Of a stretch of DNA of 64,000 nt, positions 1 through 44,408 are shown piece after piece. Made by a program: the position numbers and the translations under genes. Numbering within the stretch: the stretch's first letter is position 1; the number at the start of each line of letters is the position of its first letter. A model generated the notes under the pieces. That model saw only the letters and a list, made by a program, of their open reading frames with translations. It was not told the origin of the DNA and searched no databases. Origin of the DNA: Octopus vulgaris (Eukaryota); the NCBI GenBank assembly GCA_951406725.2, contig OX597822.1, forward strand, positions 62,868,001 through 62,932,000. The letters are read 5' to 3'.

Positions 1-2860
1 ACAGACCGCTCAGTTCGTTATCGTCAACGCCTAGAGTTTCCCCGAGAACGTCGTCGCATTTTTCCTCCACTAACCCTCTATAGAACGCTAGAGTGGAGCT
101 GAAACCGATCGCATTGCCCGCCTGGCGGAGGGCGGAGAGAGCTTGACGGCACTCGAGGTGCCAAGCGCCCTTTCTCGGTCTACGTTTGATCCAGGTCTGC
201 AGCTCTGTCAAAGAGACGAGCTGCGGAAAGTCGCGTCTGACAAAAGACGACCACACCTGTTCACCGTCTAGGAAACGCTTGAGATGTCGCAGCCTGAGCG
301 CATGTCTGCGCATCAGTAACCACGGCATTCCAAGGCCTCCGTTCAGCGGTCGTTGACAGCAGATGGATCGCCTGACCAGTGGCACCTGACCCTTCCACAA
401 AAAGTCGAAGAGCAGGCGTACAAGCTTGGCCAACCAGCGGTTGGGACAAGGGACGACGGTCAAGCGGTAATAGATGACGGATGCGATGTACGCATTCGCC
501 ACCTCCGCTCGACCTTTCAGGGACAGCTTCCTCTCGGCCCATTTCTGGGTGAGACGTGCCACCCTGCTCGTCACCTCTTCCCAGTTTTTATCCACCTGGA
601 GGTCCGGACCGAACCAGACCCCGAGCAGTTTAACGGGTCCGTCTGTCCAGCGCCCTACGACGCTGTTGGACGGCATGGGCTTGCCTCTCCAGGTGCCCAG
701 TTGCAAGCCCACAGACTTTTCCGCGTTAATCTTTGCCCCTGTCACCGCTTCGTACTCGTTTAGTGTCTCGCCAATCAGGCCAATGTGCCTGTGGCTCGAC
801 ACCATCACGGTGACGTCGTCGGCATAGGCAGACACGCTGTTTCCGCCTCCTAGATCGCGCGGGATACCCCTCAAAGCCTCCAACTTGCGCAGTAATGGCT
901 CGAGAGTCAATATGTACAAGAGGGAGGAGAGAGGGCATCCTTGGCGGACCGAACGCGAGATGTCGAACGGTTCCGAAACGTGACCGTTCACCCGTATCAC
1001 CGAGCTGTATAAAGCAGCGATCCACCCGCGGAAGACTGGACCGAAGCCGGCTGCCTTGAGAACAGCTGCCAGGTACCGATGGTCGACCCTATCGAAGGCT
1101 TTACTCTGATCTAAGTTGATCAAAGCCCCACCCGCGCCAGCGTCGTTACCCACCCTCTCTATGATGTAGCGCATGAGATGGAGGTTGTCGTGTATCGACC
1201 TGGTCGGCACGGCGCATGTCTGCGTCTTGCCGACCAGCTTGTCCACGACAAGCGCCAATCTCTTGGCTAGCACCTTGGCCAAAATCTTCAACTCTGCATT
1301 GAGCAGAGTGATGGGCCGAAAATTCCCTATAACGTCCCCCTTGTTTGGGTCCTTTTTTAGCAAAGCCACCACCCCTCGACAGACAAAAGCAGGAATTCTC
1401 CCGTTTTGCTGCCAGTTGCAGTAGACGTTTGCCAACAGGCCCGCAAACAAGTCTGGCATTGAAGTGTAAAGCTCGTAGGGCAGACCATCCAAACCCGGCG
1501 ATCTACCTCTCGTGCAACTCTTCATTGCTTCCTCCACTTCCCAGGCAGATATCGGTCCTTCGCAGCACTCTGCCTCGCTGTCCGAGAGTTGCGGTAGGCC
1601 GTCCAGGTACACACCGAAGTCTGCACCATTGTGCGTTCCACCGCTCGTCCCAAACAGTTGAGCAAAGTGCCGCTGAAACACCGTACACATCTGCTTCGGT
1701 TCGGTAACCTCGCGCCCGTTCTGGTCCACCAAAGACCGAATGGTTGCTTTGTTGCCTCGCTTCGCCTCCGCCACGCGGGCCCATCGAGCGGCTCTAGTCC
1801 CCTCCCCGCTTAGCGAACGTGCCTTAGCTCTGACAACGCAGCCTTCGTGTTTGGCGTCAAAGTGTTGGTCGAGGGCCAACCTTGCCGCCAACACGTTGGT
1901 CGCGATGCCAGTCTCAAGAGCCTCGTCTAGTTTCTTAACTAAATCCCGCTCTCTCTTCCTACGTTCAATAGCTAGAGTCTTACTAAACCTAATCGACTCT
2001 ACTCTAATTGCTCTCTTGAGGGCAAACCACCAGTTGTTGTTGATGATTGCCCCCGTGAGCGCCCGCTTAACTAGTAAACTAATCCGGTCTCTGTAAGCTT
2101 TGCACGCCGTTAACGACGCGTTCAGCTTCCAGTAGCCGGGTCCCTGTCTATGTAGCCTATCTAAGTCGACCGTACAGATCATGAATTTGTGGTCCGTGTA
2201 GTCGACTAGGTGGAATAGTGGACACCCTATGCTGTCCTTATCCGCTGGCCTACAAAACACTCTAAGTACGATGCGATTGGTCCAAGTCCACATTGGCACA
2301 TTCGGGTTGTCTAGTCGAAACCTGTCGGACAGCTGAAAGCGTCCGAGTAGGTTGGCGAGGCTCTTGCACCCTCCTCTCCTATCAGACGCTCCCCTGCCCA
2401 CCCGATCGAAACGTTCGTCTAAGACAGCGTTCCAATCCCCAACTAGCACTAGAGTGCGTGACGTTCCCAGGAAAACTTCCAGACGTTTGAAATAATCCGA
2501 CTGCCCTGCTCCTGTCGGAGCGTAGGCAGCCAGCAGTCTGAAAGCACCGCCGTCACTACCGTCTACGTCGAGGACCACCAACTTACCTTCCGGATCCAGG
2601 AAGACTGTCCTTATTTTCAAGTCCAGGCCCTTCCGAAACAACACCGCAGTACCACCACCGCCCGCTCCCGGCCGACACGGAGATAGAAATATCTCGTATC
2701 CGCCGAAAAGGGCTGCGAGTTCCTGCGGGTCGGAGAGCCTGGTTTCACTGATGGCTGCTACATCCACATCATGAAACCTCAGGTCGTTTAACAGGTGACC
2801 CTGTTTCCAAGGTGACCCGAGGCCTCTCACATTCAAGCAACCGATTCTAAGTTTTGCCAT
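1..2860 (-). CDS. ORF2 (APE endonuclease + reverse transcriptase), open to the window edge, 953 codons visible
   Basis: Manual translation: MAKLRIGCLNVRGL...AISETRL...AYAP...VGDWNAVL...YTDHK...PGYWKLN...SPGLDGLP...FRPITLLNAELKILAK...LDQSKAFDRVDH...VRQGCPLS...AYADDVTV. I found no stop from 2860 to 2, and the frame arithmetic is consistent. Confidence 0.9.
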   Translation of the reverse strand, partial: MAKLRIGCLNVRGLGSPWKQGHLLNDLRFHDVDVAAISETRLSDPQELAALFGGYEIFLSPCRPGAGGGGTAVLFRKGLDLKIRTVFLDPEGKLVVLDVDGSDGGAFRLLAAYAPTGAGQSDYFKRLEVFLGTSRTLVLVGDWNAVLDERFDRVGRGASDRRGGCKSLANLLGRFQLSDRFRLDNPNVPMWTWTNRIVLRVFCRPADKDSIGCPLFHLVDYTDHKFMICTVDLDRLHRQGPGYWKLNASLTACKAYRDRISLLVKRALTGAIINNNWWFALKRAIRVESIRFSKTLAIERRKRERDLVKKLDEALETGIATNVLAARLALDQHFDAKHEGCVVRAKARSLSGEGTRAARWARVAEAKRGNKATIRSLVDQNGREVTEPKQMCTVFQRHFAQLFGTSGGTHNGADFGVYLDGLPQLSDSEAECCEGPISAWEVEEAMKSCTRGRSPGLDGLPYELYTSMPDLFAGLLANVYCNWQQNGRIPAFVCRGVVALLKKDPNKGDVIGNFRPITLLNAELKILAKVLAKRLALVVDKLVGKTQTCAVPTRSIHDNLHLMRYIIERVGNDAGAGGALINLDQSKAFDRVDHRYLAAVLKAAGFGPVFRGWIAALYSSVIRVNGHVSEPFDISRSVRQGCPLSSLLYILTLEPLLRKLEALRGIPRDLGGGNSVSAYADDVTVMVSSHRHIGLIGETLNEYEAVTGAKINAEKSVGLQLGTWRGKPMPSNSVVGRWTDGPVKLLGVWFGPDLQVDKNWEEVTSRVARLTQKWAERKLSLKGRAEVANAYIASVIYYRLTVVPCPNRWLAKLVRLLFDFLWKGQVPLVRRSICCQRPLNGGLGMPWLLMRRHALRLRHLKRFLDGEQVWSSFVRRDFPQLVSLTELQTWIKRRPRKGAWHLECRQALSALRQAGNAIGFSSTLAFYRGLVEEKCDDVLGETLGVDDNELSGL

Positions 2861-2906
2861 GTTTCAAAGGTGGAAAGAAAAAAAAAATTAAAGGAGAAAA
2901 AAGGCT

Positions 2907-4378
2907 CTACTTACTGTTGTTGGTGGTGGGGGTGGCTCCCTTGTGCTTTTGCACGGGTGCTTCCACAATATTTTTATATAGTTTCTTTGAGAAACTTTTC
3001 CCTAACGATTCCACATCGTTAGGGAATATTTGTTTTATGTCACTGTATGTTGTTGCGTTGATTTTTATTGTGAGAATGTGTGCTGGTGGTGTGTTGTGTG
3101 TTGGTATAACGAAATCTGTTATGTTTGTACTTGTTTTGTCTTTTAGGTATGCAACTAGTTTTTCATTCTTTGTGTTTATTGATGTAATTGTGTCTGTTGG
3201 TGTTGGTGTGTGTGGCAGTGGCAGTAGTGGTGTCGAAAGTGTTGTTGTTGTTTGTTGTTGTGAGTGTGTGTTGTTGTTGTTGATTTGGGGAAGCACTATC
3301 TGTTCGTGCTTCCCCTGTGTGTTCTTTTGTTTTTTCCTCCTCTTCTTTTTTGGAGGCACTGTGTGCCATTCCCATTTCTCGGTATCAGTGCTCACACAAT
3401 CCGAGCTGTCTTGATCCGGAAAGAGGATGGCTGTCGGATCCGCTTCAGCAGCAGGGCGAAAAGTTTTTGGTTCTGCTGGTAGCGGTGGTGTTGCTGTATC
3501 TGTTGGTGATGGTGACGGTGTCGGTGAGTTTTCCTCTTCCTTTTGTTTTGTTGTTGATTTTCTAGGTGCTGGGGTTGGTGTTGGTTTGGTGGTTGTTGTT
3601 GGAGGTGGTGTCGTTCGTCGTCGTCGTGGTGAAGGTGTTGGTGGTGTGGCAGCCTTTGGTGTTTCGTGCTGTTGTTGTTTCTGTTGTTCTTGTTGTTTCT
3701 GTTGTTCTTGTTGTTGTTGTTGTTGCTGCTGCTGCTGCTGCCTCTTGCCGTTTGCCTCCATTCTTTTTTTGTGAATGGGGCAGTCCCTCTTTAGGTGGCT
3801 TTCGCTGCTGCAGAGGTAACATTTTGGCTTTCGCCCCTCCACAGTAACATGCAGCCTGGTTCCATCTGGTAAATTTACCGAGTCAGGTATAGCATTAATG
3901 TTTACCTGCTGGATTTGTACCAGCAGTTGAACTCGCATACCTGACCAGTTTTTCTCCCTCACCCTTCGTACATCTAGAATAGTGGCAGTGTCCTCTATGT
4001 CATAGAGGACAGCCGCCACCAGCCATGATATACTCAGTTCGGGTGGTACTGTGTCTATTTTTATTTTTTGGACCCTTCACCCGAGGTATGATGGTACCAG
4101 GAGCAAACTTTCATTTTGCATGGGCGAAATAGCATGCGCCCTTGCATCCTCTTCTGTTCGAAAACGAACCTCCACGGTTCCAAAACGCTTCCCTCTAGTT
4201 ACGTAGCTCTTTTGGCCCATATGGGCTTCAGAGCTATTTCAATTGTTGGGGTGTTGCGTTCGTCACTCTTTTGATTTTTTTGTCAAACACCTTGTAAATT
4301 ATTGTTTTCTTGTTTGTACCATTTATGAATTGTTGAGGTGTATTGAGGAAAATACTGTCAGATCATTTATGTAGCCAT
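2907..4378 (-). pseudogene. ORF1 (gag-like, zinc knuckle CYLCSSESHLKRDC, polyQ and Pro/Thr-rich tail), disrupted in its 5' part
   Basis: Track ORF 2907..4019 continues upstream through TGA at 4079..4077 (...VPSYLG*RVQKIKID...), with further stops and frameshifts toward 4378. Confidence 0.8.
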
Positions 4379-6509: not shown

Positions 6510-7690
6510 AGCAATTTTGTCTTTGATTGGGCAGCTGGGCAAAGTACATATAGCTTTGTTTTGTCTTGGCCCGTTTAGTTACGAGTTTCCTCGGGGAGGA
6601 TGTGGAGTAGTCCGGAGAGTGTATTCAATTCCTCCCTACAAATCACGTGGAGGATTGCAGTAGCTGTTTATCTGTTAAAATGTGAGTTTTGTTAAATGTG
6701 AGTTTTATTAAGTAATCTGGTGATGCCCTGGCATTTAGTGAAAGAGTATGGTTACCCCTCCATTAGGGACTTTCCGGAATTGTATGGAGTTTGAGTTTTT
6801 TTTTTATCCTGCCTCACTGCATTAACTGAATATTCTGGTAAATCTCATTTCTAATGTAGGCTACTTTAGCTCTGATGGACTGCAACAAATAGGGTCCTGC
6901 AGGCCGCTTTTCTTTAAAAGATGATAGAGATTGTTTTGTGATTTTGAGTCCAAAATCAAGCAGAGATAAGGAAGCGGACTTATCGAAGTGCTCCACTTCC
7001 AATTTTATATATTCATCGATATTGTTGAACATACTGTATTATTTTACCAGCCTCCTCTCGATATGATACTATTACGGGGATGTCATCCACATACCTGGCG
7101 AAAATGCAGGAATGACGTGTGAAGATTTCCCTGCGTTCCAACTGGTTCATGGATATATTGACCAGTAGGCCTGACAAAGTTGACCCCATCGGCAGTTCAG
7201 AGATCTGATTGTAAATGGACCCTTCGAAGGTGTCGTCTGTTATAGTTGTTAAGAGTTCATAGATATCTGGAGTAGTCAGCCCAAAGCGGTTAAATTGTGA
7301 GAATAGGCAACGTGTTAATTTAGTAAGTTGATAGCTGGAGTTGCAGAGACAGAACTGTATAGCGAAACAACGTCTAAGCTAAAAGGGTTATTATTTTTTC
7401 TATCTAAATATGGATGGGTTGAGATCTTTCGATTTGTAGACGACATCTGTGGAGTTTTCAACATGTTTCATCTGATAAAGATATCGATATCTTCATCTGA
7501 TGATATGGTTTGCTTTATAAAAAGACCATTGAAATATTTGTAATGAAGAACTCAGAATATGAGTAACTTACATTTGGAGCTCTTCTTACAACATTATAGC
7601 CTGAATCCAAATTTATGCAATCTTATACAATGCATTATAGGAGTTTGGGAGTAAAATGTGGGTCGAATATTGAGCCCTAATTCAGTAACA
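6510..7690 (-). mobile_element. Penelope-like element (PLE) RT relic
   Basis: Minus-strand motifs PFSLDVVSLYSSV, YNQISELPMGSTLSGLLVNISM, FARYVDDI and FNNIDEYIKLEVEH..LSLLDF match PLE RT motifs. Frameshifted. Confidence 0.8.
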
Positions 7691-11722: not shown

Positions 11723-11878
11723 CTCCTTAAGATAAGTGATGAAATGTCTTTAATCATTACCAATGACGACGATGAAGATGGCGACCCATAATTTGTGAAT
11801 GAGACACAAAACCGGTCAGAAATGTGGACATTGACACTAAAAGAAAACGATGACTGAGCCTCTTCTTTGTCGCTCGTC
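11723..11878 (-). CDS. Candidate internal exon, 156 nt, phase 2/2 (TSDKEEAQSSFSFSVNV...SLILR)
   Basis: Acceptor GTGTTGCAG|, donor GAG|GTAAAG, open reading frame. Confidence 0.35.
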
Positions 11879-13414: not shown

Positions 13415-13464
<50 letters not shown>

Positions 13465-13613
13465 GGTTAAGTAATTGAGATTCAAGTGAATTCTAAAGAA
13501 TTCACATGAATATGGTCCTTAACTAGGATGCACCGGAAATCTATATGGTGTTAACCATACGACAAGTGGGGTGATTACAAATAGGAAAAAAGCAACAAGA
13601 ATGGATTAAAATC

Positions 13614-13697
13614 TCGGTACGATCGTTTCGTACGAGGACATCTTTAATAAGCTACAAAAAATGCAGTGAATACAGATGGCTCGTACTCGTCAGCCGA
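13614..13697 (-). ncRNA. Canonical-core type-I hammerhead ribozyme
   Basis: Minus strand: TCGG-CTGACGA-GTACGAG...CTCGTAC-GAAA-CGATCG-TA/CCGA. All core nucleotides intact, GUA cleavage triplet. Confidence 0.85.
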
Positions 13698-13770
13698 AAA
13701 AACATCAGAGAATTCCCAAACATCAAAAGGGGTAGATACAAAAGAGGTTGTAAGATTAACTGCATTGAAG

Positions 13771-14174
13771 AAAGTTCGATTCATGGAGATCCGATGAAAG
13801 GTTTTAAACTTACAGAATTTGTGCATGTCTACATATAGCTCATATTGAATTTTTAATCAAGTTGTGTGAAGAAATTTTCGGATACAGTCATGCAAAATTT
13901 CTGAAAATCCGAGTAAGAAGCAAAGTGACTGTCATATCATGTAGGGGAAAGTCTGAGTAAAAGCAAAGTGACTGTCATATCGTGTAGAGGAACAGATTGT
14001 TATTGAAATTTACAAGAATCGCAGATAAGTTCGATTCTTGGAGATCCGATGAAAAGTCTTGAACTTACAGAATATGTGCATGTCCTTATAGTTCATAATC
14101 CAGTTTTGTGAAGAGATTTAGGGTACAATCATGCGAAAATATCAGGGAATCCGAATGAGAAGCAAAGTGACAGT

Positions 14175-14176
<2 letters not shown>
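13771..14176. repeat. Tandem repeat of about 255 bp with a nested duplication of about 42 bp, adjoining the hammerhead insert
   Basis: AAGTTCGATTC..GGAGATCCGATGAAA..ACTTACAGAAT..GTGCATGTC occurs twice. AGCAAAGTGAC occurs three times. Confidence 0.8.
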
Positions 14177-14216
<40 letters not shown>

Positions 14217-24591: not shown

Positions 24592-25170
24592 AGGCGGCGA
24601 GCTGGCAGGATCGTTAGTACGCTGTACGAAATGCTTAGCGGTATTTCGTCTGCCGCTACATTCTGAGTTCAAATTCTGCCGTAGTCGACTTTGCCTTTCA
24701 TTCTTTCGGGGTCGATTAAATAAGTACCAGTTACGCACTGGGGTCGATATAATCGACTTAATCCGTTTGTTTGTCCTTGTTTGTCTCCTCTATGTTTAGC
24801 CCCCTGTGGGTAGTAAAGAAATATGTATTTCAACCGTCGCTACGTTCTGAGTTCAAATTCCGCCGAGGTCGACTTTACCTTTCATCCTTTCGGGGTCGAT
24901 AAATTAAGTACCAGTTACACACTGGGGTCGATATAATCGACTTAATCCGTTTGTCTGTCCTTGTTTGTCTCCTCTGTGTTTAGCTCCTTGTGGGTAGTAA
25001 AGAAATAGGCATTTCGTCTGCCGCTACGTTCTGAGTTCAAATTCCGCTGAGGTCAACTTTGCCTTTCATCCTTTCGGGGTCGATGAATTAAGTACCAGTT
25101 GAGTACTGGAGTCGATGTAATAGACTGTTCACCTCCTCCAAATTTATGCCTTGTACTTATAACAGAAAGG
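24592..25170 (+). mobile_element. SINE family C (Meta-domain-like) with a tandemly triplicated internal unit of about 185 bp
   Basis: TTCTGAGTTCAAATTCCGCCGAGGTCGACTTTGCCTTTCATCCTTTCGGGGTCGAT..AAGTACCAG three times, then an (ATT)n tail. Confidence 0.85.
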
Positions 25171-25944: not shown

Positions 25945-26345
25945 TTATCTCCCACAAGGGGCTAAACATAGAGGGGACAAACAAGGACAGATAAAGAGAT
26001 AAAGTCGATTACATCGACCCCAATGCTTAACTGGTACTTGATTTATCGACTACGAAAGGATGAAAGGCAAAGTCGACCTCGGCGGAATTTGAACTCAGAA
26101 CGTAACGGCAGACGAAATACCTATTTCTTTACTGCCTTCAGGGGCTACACACAGAGGGGACAAATAAGAACAGACAAACGGATTAAGTCGATTATATCGA
26201 CCCCAGTACGTAACTGGTACTTAATTTATCGACCCCAAAAGGATGAAAGGCAAAGTCGACCTCGGCAGAATTTGAACTCAGAACGTAACGGCAGACGAAA
26301 TACCGCTAAGCATATTGCCCGGCGTGCTAACGTTTCTGCCAGCTT
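25945..26345 (-). mobile_element. SINE family C, tandem dimer
   Basis: Reverse complement of the unit at 24592..25170, present twice. Confidence 0.85.
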
Positions 26346-41164: not shown

Positions 41165-44060
41165 TTTTATCTAGTTTCAGCTCACAAGCTGTGGCCATGC
41201 TAGGGCACCGCCATTTGGTGTTGCTACATGATTTTACTTCACGAATGCTTTTTAGCAATTGCCATTTGGTGCATGAGAGAGTTCGATGCAGCTGCCCTCA
41301 TCTGCACCTCCTGCCTTGAAGTTGGTTCATCTGGGATACCTGACAAGAAGAGATCCAGTTTCATTTTAAAGACATCTGCATCCACCCCATGCAGGTCTCT
41401 TAGGTTCTTCGGGAAGATATTGAAGAGCTGTGGGCCTCGGAAGCCCAGGCTATCACAGTATGTTGTCCTACATCTTGATGGCAAATTTGGAGTCCTTGGC
41501 ACTATGCAGTGGCGCCCAGTTCTGGCATTTGTGTAACTCTCGATGCCAAAGTTTGGGACATTTCCTTCTAGGATCTTCCAGATGTATATTATGGCATATC
41601 TTTCTCGCCTAGGCTCTAAGGAATAGAGTCTGAATCTCTTGAGTCTTTCCCAATAGCTTATATGCTGCACAGAGGCTATCTTCTTCGTGTAGCTTCGTTG
41701 GATCGCCTCAAGTTATGTGATTAACTTGACACTGGATGGTGACCATAGCTGAGAGCAATAGTCAAAGTGGTTTAGGACAAGTGTCCTCCAGAGGACCATC
41801 ATGGTTTCCTGGTCTCTTGTTCTGAAGGTTCTAAGAATCCATCCGGTCAGCCGCCTACATTTCATTGCCAATTTAGCAACATGCACATGAAAAGTTGCAT
41901 CATCACTCATGTAAATACCCAGGTCTAGCACTGATTGTGCCTCTGGGATTGCAATCCCTCCAGGTCCAGTGTATTTATTGGGTATTGCATTTAGTTTTGC
42001 ATGCTGATAGCATAAAGCTTGAAACATTTCAGCATTGAACTGCATGCTATTCTTTTCAGCCCACTTGTATATTTTGTCCAGCTCACATTGCAGGTGCTTA
42101 GTGTCTTCAGGGTTCTGTATTGCCTGTGAAACTTTTGTATCATCTGCATAACTTGTGATCGTGGTTCTCTGGGTGGCTGAGGGCATGTCTGAGAGGGCCA
42201 TTATGAACAGTAGTGGTCCCAAAACAGTGCCCTGCGGAACACCGCTCACTATTTGCGTGTTAGTGGCTACTACCACCTGACTTCTATCCTTCAGAAAGTC
42301 ATGAAGCCATTCTCCCAATTTTCCAACTATGCCAAGATCACGCAGTTTGTGATATAGCATTCCATGATCGAGTTTATCAAAGGCCTTTGCAAAGTCGAGA
42401 TATATCACTTCCACATTTGAGTGGTTGAGCAGTCGTTTCAGCACCCAGTCATAGGAGCTGAGTTAAGCAGCTTCTTCCTGGTCGGAAAACATGTTCGGTG
42501 TCAGGCAGCAAGTCATTTTCTTCAAGGAAGGCGATTAGTTTTCTTCTGACTATTCGTTCCATGACCTTGCTGATGTGCGAGGTCAGAGAGATAGGTCTGT
42601 AGTTCTTGGCCTCCGCTCTGCTACCTCCTTTATAAATAGGGCATATTTTAGCTTCCTTCAGTTTTCTTGGAAGTTTGCCAGTTGCAAGGAAGCTCTGAAA
42701 GAGGAACTGCAGTGGTCTTGCTGGAACTCTCTTACATACTTTTAGAAGGATTGCTGGGAATCCATCTGGGCTAGTAGCTGAGTTTGTTTTCATTTCATCA
42801 ATAGCCTTTATTACATCGTCTTCCTTTATATTGATGTAATCAATCATCGTTGCCTCCGATTTTATATCTGCAGTGGTAAAGAAGTCAGTTGGATTGCTGA
42901 CTTGAAAATGCCCCAGGGGTGGCGTGAAAATACTCTCATTGGATTTCCTGTGAGTGTGCCATCCTTTTCAAGGAGTGGCCCTATCCTACAGTGCACCGTA
43001 GCTGTTTCTTTGACATACCTGTAGAAAGCTCTGGGGTTAGATTTTATATTGTCTATAGCCCAGGCTTCTTTGTCTGCTCTTTCTTTTTCATGGGAGAGTT
43101 GCAGACATTTTTCAATTACACAGTTTTATTTTCTGGCGGACTTTTCACTGCTTTCAATTTGTTTGTTTAGGCGATTTGAAACTTTTGTACGCCGACTCAT
43201 TAGAATTTTCCTCTCTCCGGGGATTTTGCTCTTGTGTACAGTGGCCTTTCTCTCTGGGACACATTTGTAGCATATGGCTTGCATTACAGACATGAATTGT
43301 TGAAGTTTCATGTCGATGTCTGGCGAGGATAGACATTCAGGCCAGTTTTGTTTGAGGATCTCTTTCTCAATTTGTTTCCAGTTTGCCTTATGGAAGTTCA
43401 AGCTAGAAAGATTCTGAGAGTTTCTTGTAGGCTGCATGTCCATGCTTTCCTTGACCCGTACATGGTCAGCTCTACCATGTTGTGATCCGAGAGTAGTGTC
43501 GGTGTCACTTTCACATTATGGATAAGATCCATATTATTTGTGAAGCAGAGATCCAGTATGTTACCTGCCCTGGTTGGTTGTAGTATTATTTGCTCCATGT
43601 ACAGAGTGTTGATGAGGTTCAGGAGGGACCTCGCCTGTCCTCGTTCACATCGTGTCATTCCTGGGAGAGAAAGGTCCTCGGGCCATCTGACATTGGGTAG
43701 ATTGAAGTCTCCCATAAGAAGTACACTTATGTGTTGTTCTAATGTGACTAGAACTTCTATTTTTATAAGGCAGTCTTCAAACTTGCCTACATGGGTTGGG
43801 GCATCTGGAGGGCGATATGTAGCACATATAACTACACCAAGTTGCCTTATATGTACAATTAGTGTGTCACACACCGAATTTGAGTATGACAAAAGGACCT
43901 GGGGTGTGAGGTCCTCACGGATGTACATAGCAACTCCTCCGTGACTCCTTTCTTTTCTGTCGGTCCGTAGTACAACATACTGTGGTATGTGTATTTCCGC
44001 ATCTGCTATGTCCGGTTTCAGGTGTGTTTCCGTAAGTGCTATGCATAAGGCTTGATTGCA
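41165..44060 (-). mobile_element. CR1/L2-group LINE, 5'-truncated, with frameshifted EN+RT ORF2
   Basis: [70 protein letters not shown] and YSLEPRRERY spread over five ORF pieces; intact 3' tail. Confidence 0.9.
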
Positions 44061-44082
44061 TATATATATAGGCATATATACA

Positions 44083-44114
<32 letters not shown>

Positions 44115-44213
44115 CGAATATATGTATATGTATATGCATATATATGCATATATGAATATATATATATATAAATATATATATATAAATGCATATATATGAA
44201 TAAATATATATGC

Positions 44214-44272
<59 letters not shown>

Positions 44273-44408
44273 TATATATGAATGTACATATATATGTTTT
44301 AAATATATTATCAAAAAATATTATAATTATTCTCAGTGCATTTTCGACTTCTCTTTTTCTTATATTTCTACCCGTGCGGAATAAAATAACTTTGTTTTCT
44401 ATCTATAT

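Follow-up and report, generated by a model that had tools for sequence, protein, structure and literature searches.

The hammerhead and the element copy that carries it

The window, by which we mean the whole 64-kb stretch of octopus DNA analysed here, contains a type I hammerhead motif on its minus strand. The motif lies in a repeat copy of about 715 bp that is flanked by two (TA)n arrays. The features are as follows:

13464..14181, minus strand: 5'-truncated copy, about 715 bp, of a putative Hydra-clade Penelope-like element (PLE), by BLAST against fetched loci
13772..14179, minus strand: imperfect internal duplication in the 3' UTR (14027-14179 against 13772-13947, about 74-78% identical)
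13903-13992, minus strand: 43-bp tandem repeat in the element 3' UTR
13612..13699, minus strand: type I hammerhead, by descriptor scan, folding and pair counts over 13 copies
13693-13687, minus strand: hammerhead core CUGACGA
13686-13680 with 13636-13630, minus strand: stem II, 7 bp
13678-13674 with 13643-13639, minus strand: stem II extension, 5 bp beyond a 1x2 internal loop
13629-13627, minus strand: hammerhead GAA
13619..13626, minus strand: stem III, 8-nt palindrome ACGAUCGU, by cofold and duplex energies and stem III variants
13618, minus strand: A17, with the predicted cut between 13618 and 13617
13582..13617, minus strand: +1 to +36 downstream of the cut; the nearer of the two usual 3' ends of copies lies at +34/36
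13464..13581, minus strand: 118-nt tail, +37 to +154, terminating at the second usual 3' end
14177..14215, no strand: (TA)n target array on the 5' side of the copy
13417..13463, no strand: (TA)n target array on the 3' side of the copy

An earlier note on this DNA had described the motif (minus strand, 13697-13614) with an intact core, a 7-bp stem II extended by 5 bp, a palindromic stem III and a cut between 13618 and 13617. The letters agree, direct reading recovers each of these parts, and A17 at 13618 places the cut correctly. Stem I, given there as 4 bp, is indeed a helix and is 6 bp long with one G-U pair, and loop 2 of the extended stem II additionally contains a 5-bp hairpin that the note had passed over. 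The sequence and helix pattern of a type I hammerhead was found, namely CUGANGA, GAA, A15.1-U16.1, H17, three helices and an open helix I. The core is perfect, G10.1-C11.1 is present, and the core halves are 57 nt apart, separated by the stem II arm with its inner hairpin.

A loose hammerhead descriptor matched three times in the 64 kb, and only in the 13612..13699 motif was stem I at least 4 bp long. A strict descriptor matched once in the real window and never in 300 first-order Markov replicas, and the 111-nt region around the motif has a folding z of -3.3. Rfam returned nothing at gathering score and no hammerhead among 20 matches up to E=10, a miss that is likely caused by the long stem II insert.

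The window copy consists of the 3' UTR end, the hammerhead and 154 nt from the start of the 5' UTR, that is, a pLTR with a long tail. In full-length copies the tail runs on into the 5' UTR, with an ATG at +209. The 5' junction of the window copy shows TA-rich microhomology with the target. A coding role of this copy was ruled out by a six-frame check, which found no long open frame. By BLAST, the copy is 98.7-99.0% identical to the closest copies checked and 96% identical to the ORF-bearing copy L034.

Copy number and orientation in the genome

The 141 nt around the motif are found in at least 43 listed places in the 2.8-Gb genome, at least 40 of them at 100% identity over the full length (40 scored of 1022 candidates). 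An exact 24-mer spanning the cut occurs 352 times. With the loop left free, the motif has 951 matches, of which 479 are forward and 472 reverse; the reversed control gave 0 in both searches. About a thousand intact hammerheads in this genome are thus overlooked by Rfam. Since the element inserts into (TA)n in either orientation (479/472), the sense position of the window copy near a candidate exon needs no explanation. The earlier note had treated the hammerhead as a feature of the neighbouring gene; it is instead a piece of a high-copy, (TA)n-inserting retrotransposon.

On contig C1, which bears 48 copies, 14 pairs of neighbours lie less than 10 kb apart, and all 14 are divergent, with 0 convergent and 0 same-strand. 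A non-LTR retrozyme, in which hammerhead-bearing non-coding units of 150-450 nt follow one another in tandem, was considered for the window and rejected, as the window has a single copy and no same-strand neighbours under 10 kb were found among these 48. The two element ends 6.2 kb apart in L035, also on C1, were considered as a full-length pLTR pair and rejected, being a genomic tandem duplication. This 6.2-kb duplication also includes an uninterrupted 221-aa dCMP deaminase-like frame (L035:3370-4035, Pfam PF00383).

The parent element and its clade

The longer copy L034 has an intact ORF of 1072 aa with a reverse transcriptase (RT) and, C-terminally, a GIY-YIG endonuclease. A second intact ORF, of 1071 aa, is in L105, where the 3' end of the element falls in an assembly gap. 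The element unit measures 4722 bp in L034 and 4650 bp in L106, which exceeds the size tendency of the Hydra clade (<3 kb), and the excess consists of a low-complexity insertion and the long 3' UTR. The ORF motifs are RWR (RWK in a sister family), ADKT, YRDD, CNCRIKSKC (CxCx5C) and CQLC..E..N..CIH, with no CCHH.

The 50 homologues found are mostly about 700 aa long and 33-45% identical; a weak search among longer proteins found none. An alignment of 11 proteins (the two octopus families and nine of the 50 homologues) contains the motifs and a GIY-YIG-like IY..YVG, together with two Asn-rich insertions that are specific to the octopus proteins and absent from the ~700-aa homologues. ESM Atlas neighbours of the two domains carry RVT_1 (16-48% of members) and GIY-YIG (33%). 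A Pfam search with the ORF and a PDB sequence search with the 11-protein profile gave no significant match. Over part of the query, identity reaches 92% and 66% in two Octopus sinensis proteins that bear wrong names. Annotations in that species (P0017 and P0025) place kinase-like and ankyrin-repeat labels on pieces of the element ORF, and in P0025 about 200 element residues are fused to ankyrin repeats, probably as a gene-model artefact.

The sister family is larger and 70% identical in the endonuclease; its ORFs have lengths near 950-960 aa, and many of its copies are almost identical. A comparison of the two families across their first 480 codons gives 166 codons with synonymous-only differences and 87 with amino-acid-changing ones.

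The published marks of the Hydra clade are the RWK motif, DKT in place of DKG, a CxCx5C linker, CxxC/CxH around E and N, and the lack of CCHH (PMC8557442). Two further properties of the clade were also found here: insertion into (TA)n, and a hammerhead in the pLTR, with a ribozyme flanking the ORF on both sides in L106, L108 and L115, and a 5' half-ribozyme plus a 3' ribozyme in L034. The assignment is based on motifs and on a comparison by eye with the Hydra reference proteins. A Naiad PLE was rejected: Naiad elements have an N-terminal endonuclease, DKA and no canonical hammerhead, whereas this element has a hammerhead, DKT and an endonuclease at the C-terminus. On sequence comparison, the hammerhead in the window almost certainly belongs to the terminal repeat of a young Penelope-like retrotransposon of the Hydra clade that targets (TA)n and is present here as a truncated copy.

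Judged by its motifs, the element is a new family in a known clade. In the literature searched we found no description of this family or of the arm rule described below. A repeat annotation of octopus from 2026 gives 31 Penelope-like families with recent activity; its main text mentions neither ribozyme, hammerhead nor Hydra, and its supplement may hold this family (PMC13282606).

Conservation and predicted folding of the ribozyme

In all 13 aligned copies, drawn from both families, the core is unchanged except at N7. Pairing is found in 93.2% of 351 cells, compared with 30-54% in slid controls. Both sides have changed in six of 27 pairs, spread over stems I, II and III with two in stem I, and this covariation represents a few subfamily-level events rather than independent sequences. 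In the sister family the outer three pairs of the stem II extension are register-shifted and the inner hairpin is kept. Among the first 100 stem III loops listed there are 49 GAUC, 48 AAUU and 3 GAUU, all 100 of them self-pairing, and the mismatch intermediate AAUC is absent from the same 100. The central palindrome pair is broken in two of the 13 aligned copies, both older (L115 and L116). As stems I-III covary across subfamilies, the fold is likely to have been kept by selection acting on the element.

The energy model gives the monomer a best fold of -27.2 kcal/mol, in which four core bases pair with the 3' half of the palindrome (a decoy helix). The active monomer fold, at -22.8 kcal/mol, is predicted to lie 4.4 kcal/mol above it, with a core-open fraction of about 0.1%. 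In the predicted minimum-energy fold of the dimer (-60.4 versus 2 x -27.2 kcal/mol), both cores are open and an 8-bp intermolecular stem III is formed. With the natural flanks of the window copy, the modelled pairing probability of stem I is 0.1-0.4; in a full-length copy the downstream 5' UTR is predicted to fold on itself, with stems I and II staying formed. No loop 1/loop 2 tertiary contact is recognisable in these folds, which come from a method without tertiary-contact modelling. On inspection, the sister family has a weaker decoy helix at the core, so we make no claim of a conserved switch.

Related ribozymes differ in how they cut. The minimal hammerhead of a Schistosoma PLE showed no monomer cleavage and weak dimer cleavage (PMC4209133). 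The ribozyme of the anole element PAc (Poseidon) cleaved only with protein and was unnecessary for priming; ribozyme mutants left in vitro insertion unimpaired, and the main substrate was uncut RNA (PMC11167929). Retrozyme ribozymes of coral and mussel with a 2-bp stem III cleave well as monomers, at 0.1-0.8 per min (PMC7229834). Taken with the energy model, the PLE precedents suggest that cutting in the octopus family is probably gated by dimer formation or by protein. The window copy itself is likely a weak cutter. The earlier note had called it the best candidate for an active ribozyme in the window, and it is the sole complete hammerhead there; for this copy the wording is too strong, given the predicted core-open fraction and stem I pairing.

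Ends of copies and two-armed insertions

The 3' ends of copies are concentrated at two positions. The distinct arms number about 134: 67 have their end at +29 to +46 (43 of them at +34), 60 at +147 to +164 and 7 elsewhere; de-duplication was approximate and the anchor is blind to ends before +26. One sister-family arm ends at +16. Two-armed insertions join one long to one short end in 34 of 35 cases (p=2e-9). The pattern corresponds to the one-ended tail already published, which Frangieh et al. tied to two internal start sites. Of an initial 37 pairs, L083 was dropped as a repeat of the L031 locus, and L106 and L108 because of a false anchor within the ORF; L108 was then re-entered, which gives 35. 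Without the five pairs from loci picked for their long tail, 29 of 30 are long plus short. The sole short-short pair, L034, has an identical flank on both arms and, from these flanks, looks like a later inverted duplication.

No accumulation of ends was found at the cut itself. A genome search for copies ending at the cut gave 0. The ORF start is present in 30 rows. Of these, 15 reach 50-1174 nt past the cut on its upstream side, 10 have their beginning at +23 to +200, and five, representing three insertions, are internally deleted; no row starts within 20 nt of the cut. (TA)n is joined directly to +1 at two loci, against four at a control TA at -13 and none at a control TA at -66. Hence no pile-up of 5' ends at the cut was found, either in the ORF-start rows or in the (TA)n joins relative to the two control sites. 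In the first 100 listed copies of +1..+25, 75 match the cut-spanning 24-mer by eye, and the remaining 25 all begin upstream of the cut; the closest start is at about -5 to -7, a single event that occurs twice. Copies therefore run through the cut site, and their template was either uncut or re-ligated.

In the small sample of ORF-bearing copies (L031-L034, L106-L109, L111-L115 and L117), no second ORF was found beyond the 3' repeat. Four putative-RNA contig sets cover mainly the element ends, with little of the ORF and no joints; such contigs cannot show ends or strand, and the lack of joints carries no weight. Three sister-family copies (L142, L143 and L150) have 5' boundaries at -255/-256 from the cut, which could reflect a preferred stop, a transcription start or shared descent.

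The 5' UTR fold, deletion junctions and a possible copying cycle

The region from +1 to +213 is predicted to fold as a domain (z = -7.9) whose closing helix pairs the AUG. In this model both start sites fall inside unpaired linkers or on their border, with a hairpin following about 10 nt later. Fifteen copies retain the helices, but both sides have changed in only 3 of 54 pairs and the register of the central hairpin is uncertain. The fold is complete at the 5' repeat alone, whereas cDNAs that include the ORF must begin at a site with the 3' UTR upstream; this is a hint in favour of a circle.

A second indication comes from deleted copies. One identical deletion junction occurs three times over both arms of L135, with a unit of about 380 nt, and another occurs twice in L125, with a unit of 540 nt. 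Such repeated junctions fit a circular or multimeric RNA template, and it is possible that they arose instead from tandem masters or from tandem duplication at the DNA level. We consider a circular RNA template about evenly balanced, leaning slightly to the doubtful side. It may be added that L125 and L135, as deleted tandem copies with one hammerhead per unit, are possible retrozymes in the making.

The cycle that we propose builds on observations (repeat-family membership, a parent ORF, the (TA)n target, two fixed 3' ends and copies that pass the cut), and we infer its steps. A full-length transcript would carry two ribozymes, one per terminal repeat, with about 4.7 kb between them. The two ribozymes would pair via their palindromic stem III and release a unit RNA, which would be ligated into a circle in which the lone ribozyme would be inactive. 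The RT/endonuclease would nick both (TA)n strands, and one cDNA would start at +34/36 and the other at about +154, in the unpaired linkers of the folded 5' UTR. Copying would pass the restored ribozyme and stop early; the products would be solo stubs, two-armed insertions with divergent arms, or copies longer than one unit that have pLTRs. The window copy would then be a solo-stub by-product. In its broad form, an element hammerhead whose cutting would need pairing or protein and would yield a circular copying template, we hold this to be very probably the best explanation as a whole. The specific version is put forward tentatively: a dimer-gated hammerhead makes the circle, two cDNAs (one per target strand) start from two sites 118 nt apart in a 5' UTR fold that hides the AUG, and deleted circles are copied repeatedly into retrozyme-like tandems.

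Alternative explanations

The same element could instead be copied from uncut read-through RNA of tandem or partial-tandem masters, with the ribozyme acting at release from host transcripts, in translation control, in turnover, or only once bound by protein. This is rather unlikely, and part of the evidence speaks for it. Copy ends are not in excess at the cut, and an uncut multimeric RNA predicts their absence equally well; the anole ribozyme cuts only with protein and is dispensable for priming (PMC11167929); and the AUG is predicted to be paired in the 5' UTR fold beside the ribozyme. However, that fold is complete at the 5' repeat only, the small sample of ORF-bearing copies contains no 3' repeat leading into a second ORF, and the repeated deletion junctions are simplest on a circle.

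It is improbable that the ribozyme is active as a monomer and cuts any sense read-through transcript, including host pre-mRNA at the locus. The perfect core with G10.1-C11.1 would allow it, the 2-bp stem III with a tetraloop is of the invertebrate type that cuts in mussel and coral retrozymes (PMC7229834), and the long stem II arm, kept across subfamilies, could provide an unrecognised tertiary contact. Against these stand the 4.4 kcal/mol predicted for the decoy, the weak stem I predicted in the window context, the Schistosoma precedent (PMC4209133), and a palindrome conserved beyond the need of a monomer hairpin.

That the window copy is a domesticated intronic ribozyme regulating a candidate minus-strand gene is very improbable indeed: it shares the strand of a single-copy stretch with splice-site-like borders 1.7 kb away, but it is about 99% identical along its whole length to dispersed copies, which makes it recent and its intactness a reflection of youth, and the family lies equally on both strands. 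The stretch in question, candidate exon 11723-11878 (minus strand), has AG/GT borders and one open frame, no Pfam match, and no cover in the four putative-RNA contig sets, a blank that carries no evidential weight. Nothing observed links the window copy to this stretch. The hammerhead likely serves the copying cycle of the element rather than the nearby host gene.

Comparison with known systems

The closest relatives are the Hydra-clade PLEs described by Craig et al. 2021 (PMC8557442). They share a single ORF that joins RT to a C-terminal GIY-YIG domain, has RWK-like, DKT and CxCx5C motifs and lacks CCHH, as well as the (TA)n target, a hammerhead near the 3' end, an inverted 5'-truncated partner and a one-ended tail. 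Hydra-1_Obim of Octopus bimaculoides (2507 bp) differs, by eye, in its N-terminus and ribozyme. The present family has a unit of 4.7 kb, compared with 1.1-3.0 kb in the published Hydra table; a stem II plus loop of 57 nt, compared with at most about 25 nt in 26 Hydra rows; and a tail of 118 nt, compared with the published 30-40 bp (PMC8557442). Its ORF of 1072 aa, with the two Asn-rich insertions, also exceeds the ~700-aa homologues. Long loops are known from spike-moss PLE-X ribozymes (PMC8557442 table).

The metazoan PLE hammerheads of Cervera and de la Pena 2014 (PMC4209133) share the type I architecture, a 7-bp helix II, a short helix I, a palindromic helix III and the position in the pLTR, and dimer activity with a circular template was proposed for them, as here. 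The octopus motif differs in its 8-nt palindrome, in a helix II that is extended in two tiers and in lacking an extra base between 9 and 10.1. PAc of Anolis carolinensis (Frangieh et al. 2024, PMC11167929) likewise has two internal start sites below the ribozyme that define a tail, an AT-rich target and copies crossing the cut site; its start sites are adjacent and inside the ORF (111-118 nt in), whereas those of the octopus family lie in the 5' UTR with 118 nt between them, and each arm uses one.

Metazoan non-LTR retrozymes share a type I hammerhead in short repeats (PMC7229834; bioRxiv 10.64898/2026.07.22.740005), and retrozymes derived from PLE repeats have already been described (bioRxiv 10.64898/2026.07.22.740005). 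L125 and L135, with their short units, resemble them. The window copy, in contrast, is a solo truncated piece of an autonomous element, and retrozymes are tandem non-coding arrays.

Significance and other features of the window

The finding at the locus is ordinary, as hammerheads in PLE terminal repeats, including one in an octopus Hydra element, are already published. The role of PLE hammerheads is an open question (PMC8557442, PMC11167929), for which this family is useful. It is young, has at least two intact ORF copies and a larger sister family, and its start sites are unusually widely spaced (118 nt), which makes the one-long/one-short rule easy to count. If the dimer-gated circle and two-site cDNA starts are true, the intact ORFs make the role of PLE hammerheads directly testable. 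For intact hammerheads that look intronic in such genomes, copy number should be checked first.

Other retroelements are present in the window. At 2-4076 (minus strand) there is a LINE with an open 954-aa endonuclease/RT frame that runs off the window (Pfam RVT_1, Exo_endo_phos) and an upstream 389-aa frame with a CCHC-type knuckle; it is likely young. Broken RT-bearing pieces (RVT_1) are found at 7013-7378 and 41239-44402, both on the minus strand. Short tandem arrays at 24652-25126 and 25957-26304 have a 183-184-bp unit that may resemble a common octopus SINE. Outside the window, at L116:1632 (minus strand), a sister-family copy has as its inverted partner a hammerhead of another family, with a 12-bp stem II, a long loop 2 and a palindromic stem III; long arms on stem II may be widespread in this genome.
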